NCBI GenBank assembly: GCA_036781285.1
Contig: DAIQBH010000002.1
Span: 6,710 to 70,709, forward strand
DNA length: 64,000 nucleotides
Origin: Thermodesulfobacteriota bacterium
Lineage (GTDB): Bacteria > Desulfobacterota > Binatia > UTPRO1
Direction of reading: 5' to 3'
Below the pieces are notes generated by a model. It saw only the letters and a program-made list of their open reading frames with translations, had not been told where the DNA came from and made no database searches. Positions 44,264 through 54,823 of this stretch are shown here, piece by piece (position 1 is the first letter of the stretch; each line of letters begins with the position of its first letter). A program made the position numbers and the translations under genes.

Positions 44264-47200
44264 CTACGGGATGCACCCCGTGCAGGCGAGGCACACTTGG
44301 AGCGGGCTACAGCCGATCGCCGGGAGCTCGCATGCCTCACCCGGCTCCAGGTTCAGGTTGCCGCAGACCGGGAAGAACGGAATGCACTGTCCGCAGAGGA
44401 GACAGAGCTCGCCGTCGCCGCACCCGATCGACGGCAGCTCGCAGACCTCGCCGGTCTCGATGTTGAGGTTGCCGCAGACCGGTCCCGGCAGCGCCGGGAC
44501 GCAGGCGTCGCACGTGCCCGGTTGGCAGATCTCGCCGTCGCCGCAGCCGCGGGCCGGGAGCTCGCAGACCTCGGTCGGCTCGATGTTGCCGTTGCCGCAG
44601 ATGAACCCGAGCTCCGGCGGGATCACGTCGGGCGGCGGGAAGCACTGCTGACAGAGGAGACACGTCTGGAGCGGCCCGCAACCGGCCGCCGGCAAGTCGC
44701 AGGCCTCGCCGGGATCGACGGTTCCGTTCCCGCACTGCGGAACCTGCACGGTGCACTGGCAGTTGGTCGCGCCGCAGAGGCCCGGACACGCGGCGTCCTG
44801 GGCGGGCGGCGTACCGCCGACCCCGCCGGGATCGCACTGCTCCCCGGCGCCGATGAAGCCGTCGCCGCAGACCGGCGGACACGTACACTCGGCCGGCGTG
44901 CCCGCGAGCGCGCAGTCGCCCGGACACGCGGCGTCGCTTGCCGGCGGCGTGTTGCCCGGGCCGCCGGGATCGCACTGCTCGCCGAACTCGAGGGCACCGT
45001 TGCCGCACGCCGTGTTGCACGTGCAGTTGGCGAGGCACGCACCGGGACAGTTGGCGTCGGCGGGGCCGTCGCATTCCTCGGCGGCGCGGTTCACGACACC
45101 GTCACCGCAGAGCGCCGCCGTCACCTCGGTCGGGAGCGTGAGCGCCCCCGGTCCGGGGAGACCGGCCGTCTGGTTGATCGCCTGGCCGCTCGTCGCCGGG
45201 ATGCAGAACGCGGCGGCGAGCGTGTTGGTATCCGTGCCCGGCGTGCCGGTCTTCACGATCGGATCCATGAAGCAGCGCTGGTTCTTCGAGACGCAGGGCC
45301 CTTCCCCCGCCGGGCAATCGCTGTCGTTCTGGCAGCCGATCTCCGGCGCGCCGCCGCAGGTCTGGCTGATCGGACCCGCGACGCACTCGCCCTCACCCGA
45401 GCCCTCGCCGACGATCTGCCGGCAGAGCGGCTTGCACGCGCCGGCCGGCGCGCCCGGACACTCGCCGTCACCGGTGCACGCCTGGCCGTCGTTGCTGCCG
45501 CCGTCGCAGGCGCGCTGACACGAGCTCGTCTGCGGCTGACCGTCGCACCAGCACTGCTGGTTGGTCGCCCCGGCACCATCGCAGGTCTGGTTCGTCGGGA
45601 ACGTGACGGTCCCGGTCGTAGCCGGCACGAACGGGATGTCGAGACCGCCGCCGGAAACGTTCAGCGACGAGCTCGGCGGACAGTCGTTCGACGTCGGCCC
45701 GAGCGGCCCGTTGCCGCCGACGCGGCACGCCGGGCTGCCGATGATCCCGGTACACGTCCCGGTGTCGCCGGGGACGCAGTCCGCGAGGTCCGGCTTGCCG
45801 CAATCGCAGATCGGACACGGCGCGCTCACCTGCGAGCCGAGGTGCACGAGCGAGCTGAGCCGGAGATTGATGGCCGCGTCGCCCGTCTGCATGTTGTACG
45901 TCCCCGTCGCGTCGGTCGCGAAGCGGTTGATGATGCACGCCGGCACGCCGCCCGCGGAGAGCGGAAGCGGCGGGCCGAAGGTCTGGATCACGCAGCTACC
46001 GGCGCCGCTGCACTCGTTGTTGTTGGTGCAGGAGCGGCTCGGGTCGGCGGAGCAGAACGACCCGACGTTGCCGAAGAAGTCGCAGAGCACGTCGCTCGAG
46101 CCGTTGCAGCCCGAGAGCTCGCCGGCGATCGTCGATCCCGTCTGCACGGCGGAGTCGTGCGCGGTACCGGTCCATCCGGTGTCGAGATCGGCACCCGGAC
46201 GCACGACGAAGGACAGATTGCCCTGGCCGGGACACGTGCAGCCCTCGGTGCACTGGCCCGGACAGAGGGCGTCGTCGGTGCCGTCGCAGAGCTCGGCCGC
46301 CTGCCGCACGTCGTCGCCGCAGATGGGCGAGCACTGACAATCACCCTGACACGTCCCGGGACATGTGCCGGTGTTCGTGCCGTCGCACTGCTCGCCGGCG
46401 TCGATCGTGCCGTCGCCGCAGAAGGGGCCGCACGTGCAGTCGCCCTGGCACGCCGCCGCCGGGCAGGCCGTCGAGCCGCCGCCGTCGCACTCCTCGCTGC
46501 CTTCGACGATGTCGTTGCCGCACACGGCGCCGCAGGTGCAGTCGCCCTGACAGGCCCCCGGACAGGTCGGCGCGTCGCTGCCGTCGCAGATCTCGCCGGC
46601 TTCCTTGATGCCGTTGCCGCACGTCCCCGCCGGACACTCGCAGGTGCCGAGGCACTGGCCCGGACACGCGGCATCGTCGCCGCCGTCGCACTGCTCGCCG
46701 GCATCTACGACGCCGTTGCCGCAGCCCGCGCACGTGCAATCGGGCTGACAGGCGCCCGGGCATGCCGCATCGGCGCTGCCGTCACATTGCTCGCCCGCGT
46801 TCAGCACGCCGTTCCCGCACTGCGCGCCGCTCCGGAAGATGCGGGTCGGCAGCTCGAGCGCACCGGGCCCCGGCAGACCGGCCACCTGGTTCACGGACTG
46901 ACTCGCCGTCGGCGGGATGCAGAAAGTCGCCGCGACGACCGCCGTCTGCGTCCCAGGCACGCCCGTCCGCGTGATCGAGTCGAGGAAGCACTGGCGAAGG
47001 TTGGCGCCGCAGACCTGGCCGCTCACGCACGCCTCGCAGTTGCCGGTGGGCGGCGGATTGCAGTCCTGGTCGTTCAGGCACCCGCGGAAGGTCTCGATGC
47101 TGCAATTGTTGTCGATCGGACCCGCCTCGCAGATCCCTTCCTGCGGGCCGTCGGCCGGGTTCGGCGTGCAGACCGTGTCGACGCAGCCGTTCGCCGCGGT

Positions 47201-49318
47201 CGGCTGTCCGGGTCGATTGCAGAAGCCGCTCGGGCACTGCGACGCCGTCGAGCACGTCGCGCCCGCGTTCGTACCACCGATGCACCGCCGACCGCCGCAG
47301 ACGATGCCCGGCGAGCAGTCGGCGTTCGTATTGCAGGGCGCCGCGGCCGCATCCGCGCACGTGTCGCAGAAGCAATTCCCGCCGTTGCCGTTGGTGCACG
47401 GACGGTTCTTGGTGAGGGTCGTCGACCCCGTGGTCGCGGGATCGAACGCGATGCTGAGCACGCCGATGCTGGTCGCCGACGACGGCAGGCAGTCCATGCT
47501 GAGCTCGCCGAAGAACGTGCTCGAGCCGCCGACGTCGCAGCTCTGGCCGTTCCGGACGCCGCCGCTACAGGTGCCGCTCTTCACGCCGTCGCGCGCCGTC
47601 GCGTCGTTGTCGCACGTTGGACACGGCTGCTGCACGGCGAGCCCGTTGAAGACGCCCGAGCTGAGATCGATCGTCACCGCGCCCTCACCGGCGTGCGGGC
47701 CGCTGTCGGCGATGTTGGCCGTGCCGCTCACGGCGCCGGTCAGGCGGTTGACGACGCAGACCGGCACGCCGCCCGACGAGATCGGGAGCGGCGGTCCGAG
47801 GAAGCACTCGCACGTCTCGGGATTGCTGCACCCGCTCGGCACCTCGGGGTCGCACGTCGCGAGCGAGCTGCCGTCGGGCGACGCGACGTTGAAGCAGGCG
47901 CAGTTCTTCGCGGGCCCGGGGAACGAGACGGGACCCGTCAACTGACATTGCCCGCAGGTCGGCGAGCTCGGGTTGGTGTCGCAGGCGTCGAGCCGCGCGA
48001 CGGCGACGAGCGCGTCGTCGACCGTGCTCGTGTCGTGGGCGACGCCGGTCCAACCGGTATCGAGCTCCGAGCCCGGGCGGGAGACGAAGCTCACGACCTC
48101 GGGAAGCGAGGCCGGGAGGGTACACGCCTCGGGACACTCGCAGAGCGGCGAGCACTGGCCCGGACACGCGGTCGCGTCGCTGCCGTCGCATTCCTCGCCG
48201 CCATCGATCGTATTGTTGCCGCAGCCGGGTGCCGGCGTCGCCGTAGCGGTCGGCGCGGCCGGCGTCGGCGTGCCGCCTTGCGGCGTCGCGGTCGCCGTTG
48301 CTCCGCCACCACCGGACGTCGCGGTCGCTGTCACCGTGGCCGTCGCGCCCGGACCGGGCGTCGGCGTAACCGTCGGCGCGGGACCCGCGCCGTTGCACTG
48401 CGCGGGATACGTCGTCGCTGCCGGCGCGGCCGCCGCCGCGGTGCAGGCGCTCTGGAACTCGGTGACGCAGGCGAGGCACTCGACCGCCGCCGCCATGTCG
48501 TCGATCGCGCCGCCACACGCGCCGCCGCCCGGCACGGTGACATCCGGACACGACGCGCCGAAGCCGACCGCCGCGGGTGCGACGTCGTTCCCGCCGCCGC
48601 AGAGCCGATCGGGACCGCCGCAGCGCTGACAGACCTTCGCGGCGAACTTGCTGCGCGCGCGCGCCACGCCCGCGAGCGCGGTCGCGTCGGGACAGCTGCC
48701 GCCGCCGCCCTTCAGCACGCGGTCGATGCACTTCCCGTGCGCCTTCGCCTCGGCGCGGACGACCTTCGCGAGGCTCTTGGCGATCTCACGCTGGCAGCCG
48801 AGCGCTTCCGCGTTCGGAGCCGGCGCACCGGTCGAGAGATCGATCGCCTGATCGATCGCCGACTGGTCGATGCATGAGACGCAATCCGCGACGTCGTCAC
48901 AATTGGCGAGCGTGCCGTTGCACGTCCCGCTCTGGATGTTCGGGCAGCTGCCACCGAAGCCGAGCGACGCGAGCGTGTCGTCGTCGCCGCCCGTGCCGCA
49001 GCTGCGATCGCCGCCGCCGCACTTCTGGTCGATGGCGCTCCGCAGCTTGGTGGAGGCCTTCGTGATCTGGGAGGCGGCCTTCGCATCGGGACACGGGCCC
49101 GCGATCTTCCCGGTGAGGATCTGATCCTCGCAGCGGGCGAGCGCCTTGATCTTCGCCTGGACGAACTTCGACGACTGACGCGCGATCTCGCGCCGACACT
49201 TGATGGTTTCGGCTTCCGCCGGCGCGGAGGCCGCAAAGACCAGACCGATTGCGCACGAGACCATCAGCGCGGTCCAGCGGTTTCGGGATCCGGAGCGGGA
49301 GCGAGCGTCGAGCGTCAT
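44264..49318 (-). CDS. Giant secreted cysteine-rich repeat protein (about 1684 aa) with Myxococcus-type Cys-rich repeats (DUF4215/TIGR02232-like) and an internally duplicated module
   Basis: Start taken as the second ATG (MTLDA...), 6 nt after AAGGAGG. Signal peptide. About 14% Cys. Three arrays of CG[ND]G-x5-GE-x-CD...CPG.C...C.C repeats. Thr/Pro-rich linker. Two paralogous about 400-aa modules. Confidence 0.8.
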   Translation of the reverse strand: MTLDARSRSGSRNRWTALMVSCAIGLVFAASAPAEAETIKCRREIARQSSKFVQAKIKALARCEDQILTGKIAGPCPDAKAASQITKASTKLRSAIDQKCGGGDRSCGTGGDDDTLASLGFGGSCPNIQSGTCNGTLANCDDVADCVSCIDQSAIDQAIDLSTGAPAPNAEALGCQREIAKSLAKVVRAEAKAHGKCIDRVLKGGGGSCPDATALAGVARARSKFAAKVCQRCGGPDRLCGGGNDVAPAAVGFGASCPDVTVPGGGACGGAIDDMAAAVECLACVTEFQSACTAAAAAPAATTYPAQCNGAGPAPTVTPTPGPGATATVTATATSGGGGATATATPQGGTPTPAAPTATATPAPGCGNNTIDGGEECDGSDATACPGQCSPLCECPEACTLPASLPEVVSFVSRPGSELDTGWTGVAHDTSTVDDALVAVARLDACDTNPSSPTCGQCQLTGPVSFPGPAKNCACFNVASPDGSSLATCDPEVPSGCSNPETCECFLGPPLPISSGGVPVCVVNRLTGAVSGTANIADSGPHAGEGAVTIDLSSGVFNGLAVQQPCPTCDNDATARDGVKSGTCSGGVRNGQSCDVGGSSTFFGELSMDCLPSSATSIGVLSIAFDPATTGSTTLTKNRPCTNGNGGNCFCDTCADAAAAPCNTNADCSPGIVCGGRRCIGGTNAGATCSTASQCPSGFCNRPGQPTAANGCVDTVCTPNPADGPQEGICEAGPIDNNCSIETFRGCLNDQDCNPPPTGNCEACVSGQVCGANLRQCFLDSITRTGVPGTQTAVVAATFCIPPTASQSVNQVAGLPGPGALELPTRIFRSGAQCGNGVLNAGEQCDGSADAACPGACQPDCTCAGCGNGVVDAGEQCDGGDDAACPGQCLGTCECPAGTCGNGIKEAGEICDGSDAPTCPGACQGDCTCGAVCGNDIVEGSEECDGGGSTACPAAACQGDCTCGPFCGDGTIDAGEQCDGTNTGTCPGTCQGDCQCSPICGDDVRQAAELCDGTDDALCPGQCTEGCTCPGQGNLSFVVRPGADLDTGWTGTAHDSAVQTGSTIAGELSGCNGSSDVLCDFFGNVGSFCSADPSRSCTNNNECSGAGSCVIQTFGPPLPLSAGGVPACIINRFATDATGTYNMQTGDAAINLRLSSLVHLGSQVSAPCPICDCGKPDLADCVPGDTGTCTGIIGSPACRVGGNGPLGPTSNDCPPSSSLNVSGGGLDIPFVPATTGTVTFPTNQTCDGAGATNQQCWCDGQPQTSSCQRACDGGSNDGQACTGDGECPGAPAGACKPLCRQIVGEGSGEGECVAGPISQTCGGAPEIGCQNDSDCPAGEGPCVSKNQRCFMDPIVKTGTPGTDTNTLAAAFCIPATSGQAINQTAGLPGPGALTLPTEVTAALCGDGVVNRAAEECDGPADANCPGACLANCTCNTACGNGALEFGEQCDPGGPGNTPPASDAACPGDCALAGTPAECTCPPVCGDGFIGAGEQCDPGGVGGTPPAQDAACPGLCGATNCQCTVQVPQCGNGTVDPGEACDLPAAGCGPLQTCLLCQQCFPPPDVIPPELGFICGNGNIEPTEVCELPARGCGDGEICQPGTCDACVPALPGPVCGNLNIETGEVCELPSIGCGDGELCLLCGQCIPFFPVCGNLNLEPGEACELPAIGCSPLQVCLACTGCIP
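44267..45109 (-). repeat. C-terminal array of seven degenerate Myxococcus-type Cys repeats (coding)
   Basis: CGDGVVNRAAEECDG, CGNGALEFGEQCDPG, CGDGFIGAGEQCDPG, CGNGTVDPGEACDLP, CGNGNIEPTEVCELP, CGNLNIETGEVCELP, CGNLNLEPGEACELP. Confidence 0.7.
46226..46822 (-). repeat. Central array of six tandem Myxococcus-type Cys repeats (coding)
   Basis: CGNGVLNAGEQCDGS, CGNGVVDAGEQCDGG, CGNGIKEAGEICDGS, CGNDIVEGSEECDGG, CGDGTIDAGEQCDGT, CGDDVRQAAELCDGT, each followed by ACPG.C.GDC.C. Confidence 0.75.
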
Positions 49319-49426
49319 GTACATCCTCCTTCAAGGGGGTGGGTCGCGCGCGAATCACTGCACGGCACTCGTTCGCGACCGCGCCGAATGTACGAGAGCG
49401 CCAAAAGTCCACCAATCACGGAATCC

Positions 49427-49509: not shown

Positions 49510-51087
49510 CTAACGAGTCGCCGCTGGCCGGCGCCATAGACGGCGCGCGGCAAAGAGCACACGGCTTGCGAGCGAGCTCGGCGCCTCGGTCGGAAAGAGA
49601 CGGGGCAGCAGCAGAAAGAGCCGACGCCGGCCCGCCAAGCGAATGCGCCGTGCGAGAAGGCCCCACACGGGGTTCGCCTCGCCGCGATGGATCGCGAGGA
49701 AGTACGTGGCCGGCATGCGCACGACGAGATCCGCGTCGGCGACCGCGCCCGGCCGCACCTCGCAGCGGCCTCCGGCGATGCGCATCACCCAGTCCCCACC
49801 CCCCGCGCCCTCGAGCCGGAACTGCGTCGTGAACGCGAGCCCGGCTGCCTCGTCGGCGCGGAAGTACTGCGGCATCCATCGCATCATCGCGTCGACGTTC
49901 TGGGTACGGATGCGCCGGAGCGACACGAGTCGCGTTCCCGCCGCCGACTGCCCGGCGCGATCGACCGGCGTCCGCCATTCACCGGGAGGCACGTTCAATC
50001 GCTCGCGCGTCCCCGGCGTGTCGATCACGAACTGCGCGTCTTCGACGCCGCGCGTGTAGGTGAGCGGCTTCAACGTCTCGTCGAGGTACCGGCGGCGCAC
50101 GTCGCGCTCGCCGTGGAAGGCGGTCTCGATCTCCGCGGGACAGGTCGCGACGCAGTTGAAGCAGCGGTACTCGACCTTGAACGCTATCGCCTGCCAGAGC
50201 GCGGCGATCTCGTTGTCGGCCCAGCGCTTCCGGAACCGCTTCGGCTTCGCCTCCGCGAGATCCTGCACGAGGTCGAGGAAGCCGGGGATCGAGTCGCGGT
50301 AGGTGTGGTTGTAGCAGGCGAAGAAGTCGAAGTTGCCGTCGGGCTTGATCGCGTCGGTCGGACACGACGCGATGCAGAGGTTGCACTGGACGCACGGGTT
50401 CCAGTCGAGGCGGCCGTCGTACGCGTCGAGCTCGAGGTTGGTGACGACCGTGTCGATCAGGCAGTAGGCGCCGAACTTCCGGTGCAGGAAGTTCCGGCTC
50501 GTGCCGATCACGCCGAGGCCCGCGGCGTGCGCGACGAGCTTGTGGCTGAGCGGCCAGATCTTGTCGGCCCAGCGCTGCCCGACCTCCATCGGCCAGCCGA
50601 TCGTCGTCGTGAGCCCTTCCCCGCCGAGGCTGTTGACGTACTTCACCGTTTTCCGGCCCATCTCCCAGAGCCGCTCCTCGCAGCGGTAGAGCTCGTTGTT
50701 CGCCGACGGCAGGTAGCGCGACTGCATCGCCGCCTTGTTCTCCTCGGCGATGAGGCAGACGAGCGAGCGCGCGTGCGGATAGACGTACCGGATCTCGGCA
50801 CGCTCGTGGTCGAGCGCGGGATCGTCGATCGAGATCACGCCGACGTCGTCGCACCAGGTCGCGACCTCGGCCTTGAAGGTCGCGAGATCGACGGGCGCGC
50901 GCACGCCGCGCGGGACGATCGGGTCGTCGGCGAGCGGCCGGTAGGGCCAGCGATGCGCCGGCAGGATGGGGACGTCGTCCGGGCGTCGCGTGCGGCTCTT
51001 GCCGGGCGGCGGGAAGGGGAACGGCCAATCACTCGCGCTGCTCGGAGCCATTCCAGGCGGTTCCGGAACACTGTTCACCTTGCTCAT
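49510..51087 (-). CDS. QueG-family (epoxyqueuosine-reductase-like) 4Fe-4S protein fused to a C-terminal SCP2 sterol-carrier-like domain
   Basis: GLGVIGTSRNFLHRKFGAYCLIDTVVTNLEL is the QueG-type motif. Two ferredoxin-type clusters (CVQCNLCIASCP and CFNCVATCP). SCP2-like C-terminus (VMRIAGGRCEVRPG...YFLAIHRGEANP). SD GAGGTG. Confidence 0.65.
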   Translation of the reverse strand: MSKVNSVPEPPGMAPSSASDWPFPFPPPGKSRTRRPDDVPILPAHRWPYRPLADDPIVPRGVRAPVDLATFKAEVATWCDDVGVISIDDPALDHERAEIRYVYPHARSLVCLIAEENKAAMQSRYLPSANNELYRCEERLWEMGRKTVKYVNSLGGEGLTTTIGWPMEVGQRWADKIWPLSHKLVAHAAGLGVIGTSRNFLHRKFGAYCLIDTVVTNLELDAYDGRLDWNPCVQCNLCIASCPTDAIKPDGNFDFFACYNHTYRDSIPGFLDLVQDLAEAKPKRFRKRWADNEIAALWQAIAFKVEYRCFNCVATCPAEIETAFHGERDVRRRYLDETLKPLTYTRGVEDAQFVIDTPGTRERLNVPPGEWRTPVDRAGQSAAGTRLVSLRRIRTQNVDAMMRWMPQYFRADEAAGLAFTTQFRLEGAGGGDWVMRIAGGRCEVRPGAVADADLVVRMPATYFLAIHRGEANPVWGLLARRIRLAGRRRLFLLLPRLFPTEAPSSLASRVLFAARRLWRRPAATR

Positions 51088-51091
51088 GGTT

Positions 51092-51721
51092 TCACCTCGC
51101 CGGCGTCAGCCAGGCCCGAATCGCGTCGAAGACACCCTCCAGCACCGCAACCTGCTCCTCGTACGTCGACTGCACGAGCAGTCCCGACACCGCGAGCGCC
51201 GTGACGCCGTGCACCTGGGTCCAGAGCGCGGTCGTCACCGTCATCGGGTCGAGATCGCGCCGGATCTCGCCCGCCCCCATGCCGCTCGTGACCGCGTCGC
51301 GCAGCATCATGAGCGTGAAGAGCTCGTGCTGCACGACCTCGCGGCGCGGCGCGTCCGCGCCGGACCCGAGAAACATGAGCGCGTAATATTGCCGGTTTTC
51401 CATGCCGAACCGGTGGTAGGCCCGGCCCATCTCGCGCAAGCGCTCCAACGCCGGCAAGGTCGTGTCGACGGCGCGGAGGTAGTCGGCGAGCTTCGCGTGG
51501 CCTTCCATGCGGAGCGCGTGGAGGACGTCGTCGATGCCGCGATAGTGGAGATAGAGCGCGGTCGGGCTCACGCCGACGGCGCTCGCGATCCTCCGCGCGG
51601 AAACGCCGTCCGATCCGTGCGTGAAGTAGAGCCGGCGCGCGGCGTCGAGGATGCGCCGCGCGAGGCGAGGAGCGTTCGGCGAGCGGGGAGGCGCCGTCTT
51701 TCGGCGTCGGGCAGTTAACAT
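51092..51721 (-). CDS. TetR-family transcriptional regulator
   Basis: N-terminal HTH (ARRILDAARRLYFTHGSDGVSARRIASAVGVSPTALYLHY) and a helical C-terminal ligand domain. Its stop is 4 nt from the next start. Confidence 0.85.
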   Translation of the reverse strand: MLTARRRKTAPPRSPNAPRLARRILDAARRLYFTHGSDGVSARRIASAVGVSPTALYLHYRGIDDVLHALRMEGHAKLADYLRAVDTTLPALERLREMGRAYHRFGMENRQYYALMFLGSGADAPRREVVQHELFTLMMLRDAVTSGMGAGEIRRDLDPMTVTTALWTQVHGVTALAVSGLLVQSTYEEQVAVLEGVFDAIRAWLTPAR

Positions 51722-51937
51722 CGTTAACCGCTATTGGCGATCCGCGCTCGCCAGTCAACCAGCCGCGACTTCGACGCCGGCGGCGGGCGCGACCGGCAGG
51801 GTTGCCGCCGCGTCGGGCGGCAACGCCCGACGGCCATCGCGCCCGCTACGCCACGGCGCAAATCGTCTGTCGCCACGAAGATTTATCGTTGACTACGCCG
51901 GCTTCCCGGCTCATAGCCGGACGAGGAGGATCACGTC

Positions 51938-52828
51938 ATGAAGCGTCTCACCAAGCTCCTACTCCTCGCCGTCGCCGCGTGCGTCCTCGCCGCGGCTCCC
52001 GCGGCCTTCGCCGGCGCGCGCCCCTGCGTGCGCGAAGCCAAGCAGGACGCCAAGGACTGCACCGCCGCCTGCAAGGAAACCCTCCAGGCCGCCAAGGACA
52101 CGTGCCTCAACCGCGATCACGCCTGCGTCGAGGTCTGCCGGGCGAACCGCTCGCAATGCCGCCTCGACAGCGGCATCGACGCCGCGATCGACGCCTGCAA
52201 CGACATCCTCGACGCGGCTCGCGCGCAATGCCGCGCCGACCACCCGCCCGACACGGCCGCGCGCGACGCGTGCATCGACGCCGCGCAGGTCGACGCCTTC
52301 GAGTGCCGCGACGCCGCCCGCGAGCTCGCCCGCCCGCTGCTGAAACAGTGCCGCAAGGAGTTCCGCGCCTGCGCCAAGGCGTGCCCGCCGCCGGGTCCGG
52401 CGGCGCCGACGCTCGATCCGAAGGGCTGCATGCGCGACGCCAACGCCGCCGCCAAGGTCTGCACCGCGACCTGCAAGGAGGAGTTCCAGGTCGCGAAGGA
52501 CGACTGCCGCAATCGCGACCACGAGTGCATGGAGCAGTGTCGCGCCGACCGCGCGGCGTGCCGCGAGCCGGTGCGGGCGATCCTGAACGCCGACCTCGCC
52601 GACTGCGCCACCGATCGCGCGACCGGCGTCGGCGAGTGCGACACGCAATTCCCCGCGCCACGCGACGAGACGGCCGCCATCGCCTTCGATCAATGCGTCG
52701 ACGGCGTCCAGGTCGAAGCGTTCGTCTGCCGCGACGACGCGCACGAGAACGCGCGTCCCGGCTTCCTCGTCTGCAAGCAGAACTTCCGGAGCTGCGTGGA
52801 CACCAACTGTCCGGCGCAGCCTCAGTAG
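51938..52828 (+). CDS. Secreted cysteine-rich protein built from a duplicated about 130-aa, 12-Cys, helical module
   Basis: Signal peptide MKRLTKLLLLAVAACVLAAAPAAFA. Repeat 1 CVREAKQDAKDCTAACKETLQAAKDTCLNRDHACVEVCRANRSQCR aligns with repeat 2 CMRDANAAAKVCTATCKEEFQVAKDDCRNRDHECMEQCRADRAACR. 24 Cys in total. GAGGAGG RBS. Confidence 0.7.
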   Translation: MKRLTKLLLLAVAACVLAAAPAAFAGARPCVREAKQDAKDCTAACKETLQAAKDTCLNRDHACVEVCRANRSQCRLDSGIDAAIDACNDILDAARAQCRADHPPDTAARDACIDAAQVDAFECRDAARELARPLLKQCRKEFRACAKACPPPGPAAPTLDPKGCMRDANAAAKVCTATCKEEFQVAKDDCRNRDHECMEQCRADRAACREPVRAILNADLADCATDRATGVGECDTQFPAPRDETAAIAFDQCVDGVQVEAFVCRDDAHENARPGFLVCKQNFRSCVDTNCPAQPQ

Positions 52829-52909: not shown

Positions 52910-53593
52910 TCAGTCCGCCGGCGGCTCGGCGGGCTGGATGCACTCGGGGCCGTCGTTCTTCGGCGTGTTCACGAGCCGCGACACCGGGTACGCCTCCATC
53001 TCGTCCTCCGCATACGGGCGCAGGATGGTCGCGAGCGCGCGCGCGTCAGCGTCGGCCGCGAGCCAGCCCTCGCGCGCGGTCGGCGGTACGATGACGGGCA
53101 TGCGGTCGTGGATCGGCGCGACGAGCCCGTTCGCCCGACACGTCACGATCGCGCACGACACGAGCGGGTCACCTTCCTTCGGCTTCCAGCGGTCCCACAC
53201 GCCCGCGAACACGAACGGCCGCCGCGAGCGCAGGCGGAAGTACATCGGGAAGCGCTCGGTGCCGATCCGACGCCATTCGTAGAAGCCGTCCGCGACGACG
53301 AGACAGCGCCGGCGCTGGAACGGCTCGCGAAACGTCCGGTTCGTCGCGAGCGTCTCGGCGCGGGCATTGATCGCGCGGGGCCCGGACTTCGCGTCCTCGG
53401 CGAACCAGGGGACGAGTCCCCATTTCATCCAGCCCGCCCTCGGCGCGTCGTCCTTGCCGCGCGCGACGACGAGCACGCTCTCGCTCGGGCACACGTTGAA
53501 GCGCGGCCCCTCGGCGAGCATGGGATCGACGTCGACGCCGAGCTCCTCGGCGATCGCCCGCGGCGGGCTCGAGCGCGTGAAGCGACCGCACAT
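52910..53593 (-). CDS. SOS-response-associated peptidase (SRAP, YedK/HMCES family), abasic-site DNA-protein crosslinking protein
   Basis: ATG at 53593 gives MCGRF... with the Cys2 nucleophile and the conserved WNARAET-like (INARAETL) and HDRMPVI motifs. The upstream part of the long ORF is an antisense shadow of the divergent gene. Confidence 0.85.
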   Translation of the reverse strand: MCGRFTRSSPPRAIAEELGVDVDPMLAEGPRFNVCPSESVLVVARGKDDAPRAGWMKWGLVPWFAEDAKSGPRAINARAETLATNRTFREPFQRRRCLVVADGFYEWRRIGTERFPMYFRLRSRRPFVFAGVWDRWKPKEGDPLVSCAIVTCRANGLVAPIHDRMPVIVPPTAREGWLAADADARALATILRPYAEDEMEAYPVSRLVNTPKNDGPECIQPAEPPAD

Positions 53594-53647: not shown

Positions 53648-54823
53648 CAGGGTCGACGCATGCTCGCGAGCACGACCGAGATCCTGACGACGCACGCCGG
53701 CAGCCTGCCGCGCCCCCCCGCCCTCCTCGATCTGCTGGTGCGGGTCAGCAAGCGCGAACCGGTCGACGAGGCGGAGCTCGCCGCCACCGTCGAGACGGCG
53801 ACGCGCGAGGTCGTCGCCAAGCAGGTCGCGGTGGGCATCCACGTCGGCAACGACGGCGAACAGCCGCGCGAGAGCTTCGTCTCCTACGTGCAGCACCGCA
53901 TGAGCGGCTTCGGTGGGCAGAGCCAGCGGCCGATCATGCGCGACATCACGCACTATCCGAGTTTCCTGAACCTGAAGCGCCCCGACTTCGCAAAGCACAT
54001 GGTGAGCCTGATGAACGCGCCGAAGGCGATCGGGCCCGTAACCTACACCGAGCGGCGCTGGGTCGAGGAGGAGTGCGCGCTGATGGAGCGCGCCCACGCC
54101 GACCAACCGGCGCAGTTCCGCGAATGCTTCATGACCGCGGCGTCGCCCGGGATCGTCGCGTCGGCGATGCTGAACGAGCACTACCCGTCCTACGACGAGT
54201 ACGTGACGGCCGTCGGGGACGCGCTCGCACACGAGTACCAAACGATCGTCGCCAACGGATACGTGCTGCAAATCGACGCGCCCGACCTCGCAATGGAGCG
54301 GCACACCTCGTTCGCCGACAAGCCCCTCGCCGAGTTCTTGCGCTTCATCGACACCAACGTGACGGCGCTGAACCGCGCCCTCCGCGACATTCCCGAGGAG
54401 CGCGTCCGCCTGCACGTCTGCTGGGGGAACTACGAGGGTCCGCACGACGACGACGTGCCGCTCGCGGAGATCCTGCCGCGTCTCTACGCCGCCAACGTCG
54501 GCGCGCTCGTCGTCTCGATGGCGAACCCGCGGCACGCGCACGAGCACCGCTGCTTCGAGGAATACCCCCTCCCCGCCGAGATGCTGCTCGTCGCGGGCGT
54601 CGTCGATCCGACGACCAACTACGTCGAGCATCCCGAGGTCGTCGCCGACCGCATCGAGCTCGCCGCGAAGGCCGTCGGCGATCCGCGGCGCGTGCTCGCA
54701 ACGCCCGATTGCGGCTTCGCGACCGCGGCCGGGCTCGGCGAGGTCGCCGAGGAGGTCGTGTGGCTGAAACTCCGCGCGCTCGTCGAGGGCGCCCGGATCG
54801 CGACCCATCGCCTCTTTCGCTGA
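53648..54823 (+). CDS. Cobalamin-independent methionine synthase (MetE C-terminal domain)-like / UROD-fold methyltransferase family protein
   Basis: About 390 aa with the MetE-C-like layout (THAGSLPRP..., IGPVTY, HVCWGNYEG, zinc-ligand-like H/C/E positions). Confidence 0.7.
   Translation, partial: QGRRMLASTTEILTTHAGSLPRPPALLDLLVRVSKREPVDEAELAATVETATREVVAKQVAVGIHVGNDGEQPRESFVSYVQHRMSGFGGQSQRPIMRDITHYPSFLNLKRPDFAKHMVSLMNAPKAIGPVTYTERRWVEEECALMERAHADQPAQFRECFMTAASPGIVASAMLNEHYPSYDEYVTAVGDALAHEYQTIVANGYVLQIDAPDLAMERHTSFADKPLAEFLRFIDTNVTALNRALRDIPEERVRLHVCWGNYEGPHDDDVPLAEILPRLYAANVGALVVSMANPRHAHEHRCFEEYPLPAEMLLVAGVVDPTTNYVEHPEVVADRIELAAKAVGDPRRVLATPDCGFATAAGLGEVAEEVVWLKLRALVEGARIATHRLFR

Follow-up and report, generated by a model that had tools for sequence, protein, structure and literature searches.

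A cysteine-rich helical protein family of uncultured Binatota with a predicted ladder of disulfides

The CHCH or twin CX9C proteins (e.g., Cox17 and Cox19) and the twin CX3C small Tims of the mitochondrial intermembrane space are helical hairpins stapled by disulfide pairs that link C1 to C4 and C2 to C3, and they undergo oxidative folding after translocation in the unfolded state (PMC3759932, PMC7925007). Plants secrete alpha-hairpinins, helix-loop-helix peptides held by two disulfides that are formed from a CX3C...CX3C pattern (PMC7191063, PMC11591084). In bacteria, Csp1 and Csp3 (DUF326/Csp) are helical bundles with 13-19 cysteines, CxxxC motifs and a cysteine-lined face; Csp1 is periplasmic and binds 13 Cu(I) in its cysteine-lined four-helix bundle (PMC7558416).

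Here we describe a gene from a 64,000-nucleotide stretch of DNA (the window) that encodes a cysteine-rich helical protein made of two related modules. To our knowledge, few bacterial proteins have as much as one disulfide for every ten residues or so, and even fewer of these are all-helical. The explanation that we consider best is structural. We put the probability at about 0.6 that the product is a Sec-exported, oxidatively folded, disulfide-laddered helical rod.

The gene, its export signal and its relatives

The gene lies at 51938..52828 (plus strand, stop codon included), as delimited from the list of open reading frames and their translations. It starts with ATG, encodes 296 aa and is preceded, 7 nt 5' of the ATG, by the Shine-Dalgarno sequence AGGAGGA (51924..51930, plus strand). 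This sequence is invariant across six aligned upstream regions. The same alignment revealed a -35-like element, TTGACTAC (51889..51896, plus strand), that is invariant among close relatives, and a weak -10 candidate, CATAGC (51912..51917, plus strand), follows it after a 17-nt spacer. A consensus promoter scanner called no promoter upstream of the gene, and TTGACTAC together with CATAGC is a putative promoter of the gene's own. The invariance of TTGACTAC and AGGAGGA in the six relatives suggests that the gene is transcribed alone. Control by sigma-54, through an activator that is adjacent in two relatives (L001 and L002), was considered and rejected: no -24/-12 element was seen on reading the upstream region by eye, and no such adjacency exists in the window.

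Residues 1-25 (51938..52012, plus strand) form a Sec-type signal peptide, as identified from the family alignment. The N-terminus of the window protein is MKRLTKLLLLAVAACVLAAAPAAFA followed by G, with a basic n-region (MKRLTK), a hydrophobic core and an AxA site that places cleavage after residue 25, between AFA and G. The n-region (K/R), the h-region and the AxA cleavage site are kept throughout the family alignment, in which no N-terminus has a twin-arginine motif. Start codon, ribosome-binding site and conserved cleavage site all uphold the initial annotation of a 296-aa reading frame with a signal peptide. Within the signal peptide, residues 13-15 (AAC, 51974..51982) place C15 in a lipobox-like V-A-A-C context. 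This VAAC was found only in the window protein and in P0004, the remaining members of the family alignment having no cysteine there. The lipoprotein reading of C15 was rejected because this cysteine is absent from the rest of the family; cleavage by signal peptidase I at the AxA site is more likely than lipoprotein processing at C15.

Among the 5.8 billion proteins searched were 219 matches, nearly all 280-300 aa in length, all labelled 'hypothetical' and none with a Pfam domain. When 1.84 billion cluster representatives were searched exhaustively with a profile, 280 were recovered at E <= 1e-3; many of these have ~155-165 aa and comprise a signal peptide and one module. Pfam gave no match for the query (E <= 1) or for any of 36 members (E <= 10), and scans of NCBIfam, PADLOC and PHROGs with the query, the 36 members and a single-module member returned nothing. 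Nothing credible was found among PDB sequence profiles with either alignment, and a literature search for Binatota and 'cysteine-rich' found no paper. The module had not been recognised as a known family at the outset, and these scans agree.

In the 36-sequence alignment, which extends down to 41% identity, 28 of the 28 mature cysteines are invariant or nearly so, in line with the earlier expectation that their positions would be conserved in homologues. Also invariant or nearly invariant are E47, Q50, D54, H61, R68, R71, D110, D114, Q117, R124, R128 and F142, together with their module 2 counterparts. With one genome scanned per species, 25 loci were found, all of them from metagenome-assembled genomes (MAGs). 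These are labelled Candidatus Binatia, 'delta proteobacterium' or, in a few cases, with myxobacterial names, and one is a Limnocylindria MAG. Binatia are placed in the candidate phylum Binatota. MAG MFD02809.bin.2.268 has a pair of paralogues of the two-module protein (L013 and L021), each on its own contig, as does MAG MFD00962.bin.2.109 (L029 and L030). Judged from the sequences collected, the family is real, conserved, secreted and outside every described family, and it is confined mainly to the uncultured phylum Binatota.

Two helical modules and the predicted pairing of their cysteines

Two homologous halves had been proposed for the protein, and their local alignment bears this out, with a score of 258 against 47.6 +/- 8.8 for shuffled sequences and 49% identity over 120 aligned positions. 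Module 1 comprises residues 28-151 (52019..52390, plus strand), as delimited by AF2 secondary structure and cysteine conservation, and module 2 comprises residues 161-293 (52418..52816, plus strand), as delimited by AF2 secondary structure and the alignment of the halves. Between them is a Pro-rich linker, PPGPAAPTL (residues 152-160; 52391..52417, plus strand), which AF2 models as non-helical with a lower pLDDT (84). Single-module relatives terminate at the equivalent CPP motif.

The cysteine motif quoted in the initial annotation is present in the sequence, but the count of 12 cysteines per half was too low: 14 are conserved in each. These are residues 30, 41, 45, 56, 63, 67, 74, 87, 98, 112, 123, 138, 145 and 149 in module 1, and 164, 175, 179, 190, 197, 201, 208, 223, 234, 253, 264, 279, 286 and 291 in module 2. 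The total for the protein is 29, of which 28 are in the mature chain and one is C15 of the signal peptide. There are three CxxxC motifs per module, and the cysteines of each helix fall on a single face (spacing i+4, i+7, i+11). The composition (Ala 20.5%, Asp 10.4%, Cys 9.8%, Arg 9.1%) fits the earlier description of the protein as rich in Ala, Arg and Asp.

With the family alignment, AF2 models the window protein as all-helical (pLDDT 92.9, pTM 0.72), in agreement with the helical character first noticed. The predicted helices of module 1 are helix 1 (29-56), helix 2/3 (61-101, with a kink at 79 where AF2 splits it into 61-78 and 80-101) and helix 4 (107-147). Those of module 2 are helix 1' (161-190), helix 2/3' (195-237) and helix 4' (244-290). 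The model of P0166, a single-module relative, has helices at 29-57, 62-104 and 110-150 (pLDDT 89.1). It also has a beta-bridge that joins the loop between helices 1 and 2 to the C-terminal tail, which is what a 63-149 disulfide requires. On these two models, each module would consist of a shorter helix 1 and a hairpin of two ~41-residue helices.

Several observations bear on the state of the cysteines. Among 155 full-length two-module proteins, the number of mature cysteines is 28 in 120, 26 in 24 and 30 in 2, and it is odd in 9. In complete single-module proteins the number is mostly 16, 14 or 18. Across the 155 full-length proteins, joint loss of C45 and C175 was counted 20 times, and loss of just one of them not once (Fisher p = 1.4e-25); C41 and C179 were lost together five times, with C41 lost alone in three cases and C179 in one (p = 4.7e-7), and C201 and C286 together twice, with C201 never lost alone and C286 lost alone once (p = 2.5e-4); these p values ignore phylogeny, and the losses may represent few independent evolutionary events. 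The residues that replace C45 and C175 vary (S/A, N/E, A/D, A/V, V/E and others). In single-module forms there is an extra, co-occurring pair of cysteines at positions equivalent to 83 and 127 (36 and 38 of 45 rows, respectively). Also in single-module proteins, 87 and 123 are lost together in P0185, and 41 and 45 are lost together in P0202 and P0218. Losses of a single cysteine occur in a few members at 98, 112, 149, 234 and 291. The even counts and the pairwise losses favour disulfides over free thiols.

The spacing of the cysteines provides the register. In module 2, intervals of 4, 7, 15 and 11 up helix 2/3 are mirrored by 5, 7, 15 and 11 down helix 4, and helix 1 has a palindromic spacing of 11, 4, 11. 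The residue numbers of partner cysteines add up to constant sums: 220 between helix 1 and helix 1', 212/210 in module 1 and 487/488 in module 2. Because the spacing is mirrored on partner helices, each cysteine has one partner at a constant sum. The predicted rungs between helix 1 and helix 1' are thus 30-190, 41-179, 45-175 and 56-164 (sum 220). Those of the module 1 hairpin would be 63-149, 67-145 and 74-138 (sum 212) and, beyond the kink at 79, 87-123 and 98-112 (sum 210). The module 2 hairpin would have 201-286, 208-279, 223-264 and 234-253 (sum 487) and 197-291 (sum 488). All covarying cysteine pairs fall on this register, and mutual information across the family is highest for G230-V257 (sum 487) and C45-C175. 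Direct covariation supports 5-6 of the 14 rung types (the supported pairs are 201-286, 87-123, 83-127, 45-175 and 41-179), and the remaining cysteine pairs never vary; the full map of 14 disulfides is a prediction from helix register and covariation. An initial scheme of intramodule twin CX10C pairs (45-74, 41-138 and 30-149) was dropped because the joint losses of C45/C175 and C41/C179 require bonds across modules, and because helix 1 is parallel to helix 4.

A chain exported by the Sec pathway arrives unfolded in the oxidising periplasm. We propose that the protein is exported in this way and cleaved by signal peptidase I to give a soluble product. Oxidative folding, either in the periplasm or beyond the cell, would then turn it into a rigid bundle of helices. 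A module would combine the 28-residue helix 1 with a hairpin of about 60 angstrom formed by the two 41-residue helices. All 28 mature cysteines would form rungs across antiparallel helices, five stapling each hairpin and four tying helix 1 to helix 1', and the resulting three ladders would lock the two three-helix modules into one unit. The palindromic helix 1 motif suits a two-fold-symmetric antiparallel homodimer (30-56', 41-45'), from which we infer that the ~160-aa single-module relatives are probably disulfide-linked homodimers with four intermolecular disulfides. The window protein would then be the gene-fused, single-chain counterpart of such a homodimer. The short linker fits the fused form, since the end of helix 4 (C149, predicted to be bonded to C63) would adjoin C56, the partner of C164.

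The product would be a very stable, highly charged rod. The conserved residues E47, Q50, D54, R68, R71, D110, D114, Q117, R124 and R128, with their module 2 equivalents, may form internal salt-bridge networks or a binding surface. Neither genomic context nor fold matches indicate a specific partner or function; by default, the protein most likely serves in the cell envelope as a stable element with a binding or structural role. Should the ladder map prove correct, the family would offer a natural case of a helical bundle locked by 14 disulfides and would show clearly how a covalent homodimer can evolve into a fused single chain. Such a protein would help in understanding how oxidative folding proceeds in the periplasm, and hyperstable scaffolds could be modelled on it. 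The family also represents a conserved and, by prediction, probably well-expressed envelope protein of uncultured Binatota that currently has no annotation. Its importance is limited because the data point to no enzymatic or systems-level function.

Genomic setting and the giant cysteine-rich neighbour

Downstream of the gene are a gene for an SOS-response-associated peptidase (SRAP; 52910..53593, minus strand) and a MetE-like gene (Meth_synt_2, a faint match; 53660..54823, plus strand). Both are common to the close relatives (L001, L002 and L007-L009), with the order kept in L001 and L002. We judged this to be synteny by descent and not functional linkage. No neighbours are shared between the window and the distant loci (two-module L004-L006 and single-module L034-L036), or among these distant loci. 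All-against-all clustering of open reading frames from 31 fetched loci and the window identified no consistently adjacent gene. A Bac_luciferase (luciferase-like monooxygenase) gene occurs within 10 kb in nine loci (L004, L012, L014, L016, L019, L023, L024, L027 and L029), at a variable distance, mostly 3-5 kb upstream and on the opposite strand. It probably belongs to a large paralogous family in Binatia and is not a partner gene.

Upstream, the window encodes a giant cysteine-rich protein of 1686 aa (44264..49324, minus strand), whose start codon is 2.6 kb from the gene, as first annotated. Between the two lie genes for a 525-aa protein with 4Fe-4S and SCP2 domains (49510..51087, minus strand) and for a TetR-family regulator (51092..51721, minus strand), neither of which lies between them in L001. 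A GTTAAC-ATC-GTTAAC repeat (51714..51728) overlaps the start codon of the regulator gene and may be the TetR operator. The giant protein consists of a signal peptide, two N-terminal helical cysteine modules (spacing C-x21-C and C-x23-C), a Thr/Pro/Ala-rich linker, two large cysteine-rich domains and many CGNG..GE.CD repeats. The two copies of the large domain each begin ...RPG.(E/D)LDTGWTG.AHD..., and the repeats have a weak Pfam match to DUF4215 (E = 0.026). Orthologues of the giant protein were identified in L001 (81% identity) and L017 (59% identity).

A member of the 296-aa family, P0107, has a 27-aa cysteine-rich insertion, CVGGTNDGANCSDISECPGATKC (cited as residues 230-252), in the hairpin loop of module 2. 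Similar copies of this mini-motif occur in the giant protein at residues ~680-701 and ~1272-1291 (CIGGTNAGATCSTASQCPSGFC and CDGGSNDGQACTGDGECPGA). It may be a small mobile cysteine-rich module that is common to secreted proteins of Binatia.

Alternative functions and comparison with described proteins

The initial annotation had suggested that the 296-aa protein and the giant protein may belong to one disulfide-stabilised extracellular family; on this reading they would also work together. Both products are secreted and cysteine-rich, the genes are 2.6 kb apart in the window and adjacent and divergent in L001, and the inserted mini-motif of P0107, CVGGTNDGANCSDISECPG, occurs twice in the giant protein. 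Comparison of the proteins themselves gives a different picture. An hhalign comparison of the family with the N-terminal modules of the giant protein gave a probability of 0.3%, BLASTP of the two proteins found nothing significant (best E = 0.098 over 20 residues), and both the cysteine spacing and the type of repeat differ, the giant protein being DUF4215-like and the 296-aa protein having no Pfam match to DUF4215. Nor is the neighbourhood conserved: among the loci fetched (36, of which 28 are distinct after removal of duplicates and 25 come from the genome scan; L001 is on the same contig as L010), a homologue of the giant gene is within 10 kb only in L001 and L017, whereas the gene in the closest relatives (L002 and L007-L009) has none next to it. 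Distant and single-module relatives occur in unrelated contexts. Kinship with the giant protein is thus largely refuted, and we give it almost no weight.

A function that would leave the cysteines reduced is that of a periplasmic soft-metal store resembling Csp1, whose thiols, along the helix interfaces, would take up a large number of Cu(I) or other thiophilic ions in the service of copper-dependent monooxygenases or detoxification. Methylotrophy and alkane oxidation are predicted for Binatota (PMC8262859), and such copper and methylotrophy biology would suit this role. The 14 cysteines per ~125-residue helical module match the density of Csp1, the CxxxC motifs and the alignment of the cysteines along one face of each helix are as expected for it, and joint loss of two cysteines could alternatively reflect the loss of one shared metal site. 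However, none of the 36 members matches a Csp/DUF326 profile, or any other in Pfam, even at E <= 10. The models predict three-helix modules in which each cysteine face points at a single partner helix, without a common four-helix core. The signal is Sec-type, as opposed to the Tat type of Csp1, cysteine numbers are mostly even (9/155 odd) with discrete pairs, and no copper genes were found near the loci examined. The otherwise invariant histidine (H61/H195) was rejected as a metal ligand because single-module relatives often have Pro at the equivalent site; for the same reason it looks like a helix cap. We regard a metal store as unlikely. We would also bet against a bolder proposal, in which the ladders act as a reversible switch whose reduced cysteine faces bind Cu(I) or soft metals, making the family a Sec-exported, three-helix Csp analogue specific to the uncultured methylotrophic and alkane-oxidising Binatota. 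In a less far-reaching version, the family would define a new architecture, that of covalently laddered helical homodimers and the single chains fused from them, and would rank with the most disulfide-dense proteins known from bacteria. Still less probable is a redox-active protein whose disulfides are not purely structural and serve as a reversible thiol-disulfide buffer or as a reservoir of electrons or oxidising equivalents in the periplasm. The CxxxC motifs, the periplasmic location and a disulfide density that is unusually high, at about one for every 10 residues, would allow this. Against it, neither a CxxC nor a thioredoxin-like motif or fold is present, the rungs would be buried among tightly packed Ala-rich helices with poor access expected, and neighbours of Dsb or Ccm type are absent. 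We know of no precedent for a redox-active helical ladder protein of this kind.

The disulfide-laddered rod that we prefer can be compared with four groups of proteins. The likeness to twin CXnC proteins is in the antiparallel helices with equally spaced cysteines (mirrored spacing and constant sums in the window protein), and the window protein nests CX3C (63/67, 145/149), CX6C (67/74, 138/145) and CX10C (87/98, 112/123) in one hairpin. Unlike them, the family has no Pfam match to CHCH or Tim10/DDP. Mia40 substrates are eukaryotic, whereas the hosts here are bacterial MAGs and the proteins are Sec-exported. Known twin CXnC proteins have 60-100 aa and two rungs; the window protein has 270 aa and 14 predicted disulfides, with 5-6 rungs predicted per 60-angstrom hairpin in the family and a second ladder that would join two modules or two chains. 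Alpha-hairpinins resemble the end of each hairpin of the window protein, where 63/67 and 145/149 form a CX3C...CX3C. These plant peptides have ~30-50 residues and four cysteines and are not homologous to the family, in which nothing points to antimicrobial or trypsin-inhibitor activity.

Csp proteins are four-helix bundles that form homotetramers and have free thiolates around a common core, with a Tat signal peptide in Csp1 and none in Csp3. In contrast, the family described here has Sec-type signals, predicted three-helix modules, even cysteine numbers and pairwise covariation, and has neither a profile nor a fold match to Csp. De novo designed hyperstable helical hairpins and bundles (PDB 5j0l, 4uos) resemble the models in geometry only (5-15% identity); they have no disulfide ladders and are evolutionarily unrelated to the family. 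The stapling of antiparallel helices by equally spaced cysteines is thus already known, and the larger number of rungs, together with a ladder between modules or chains, is an extension of it.
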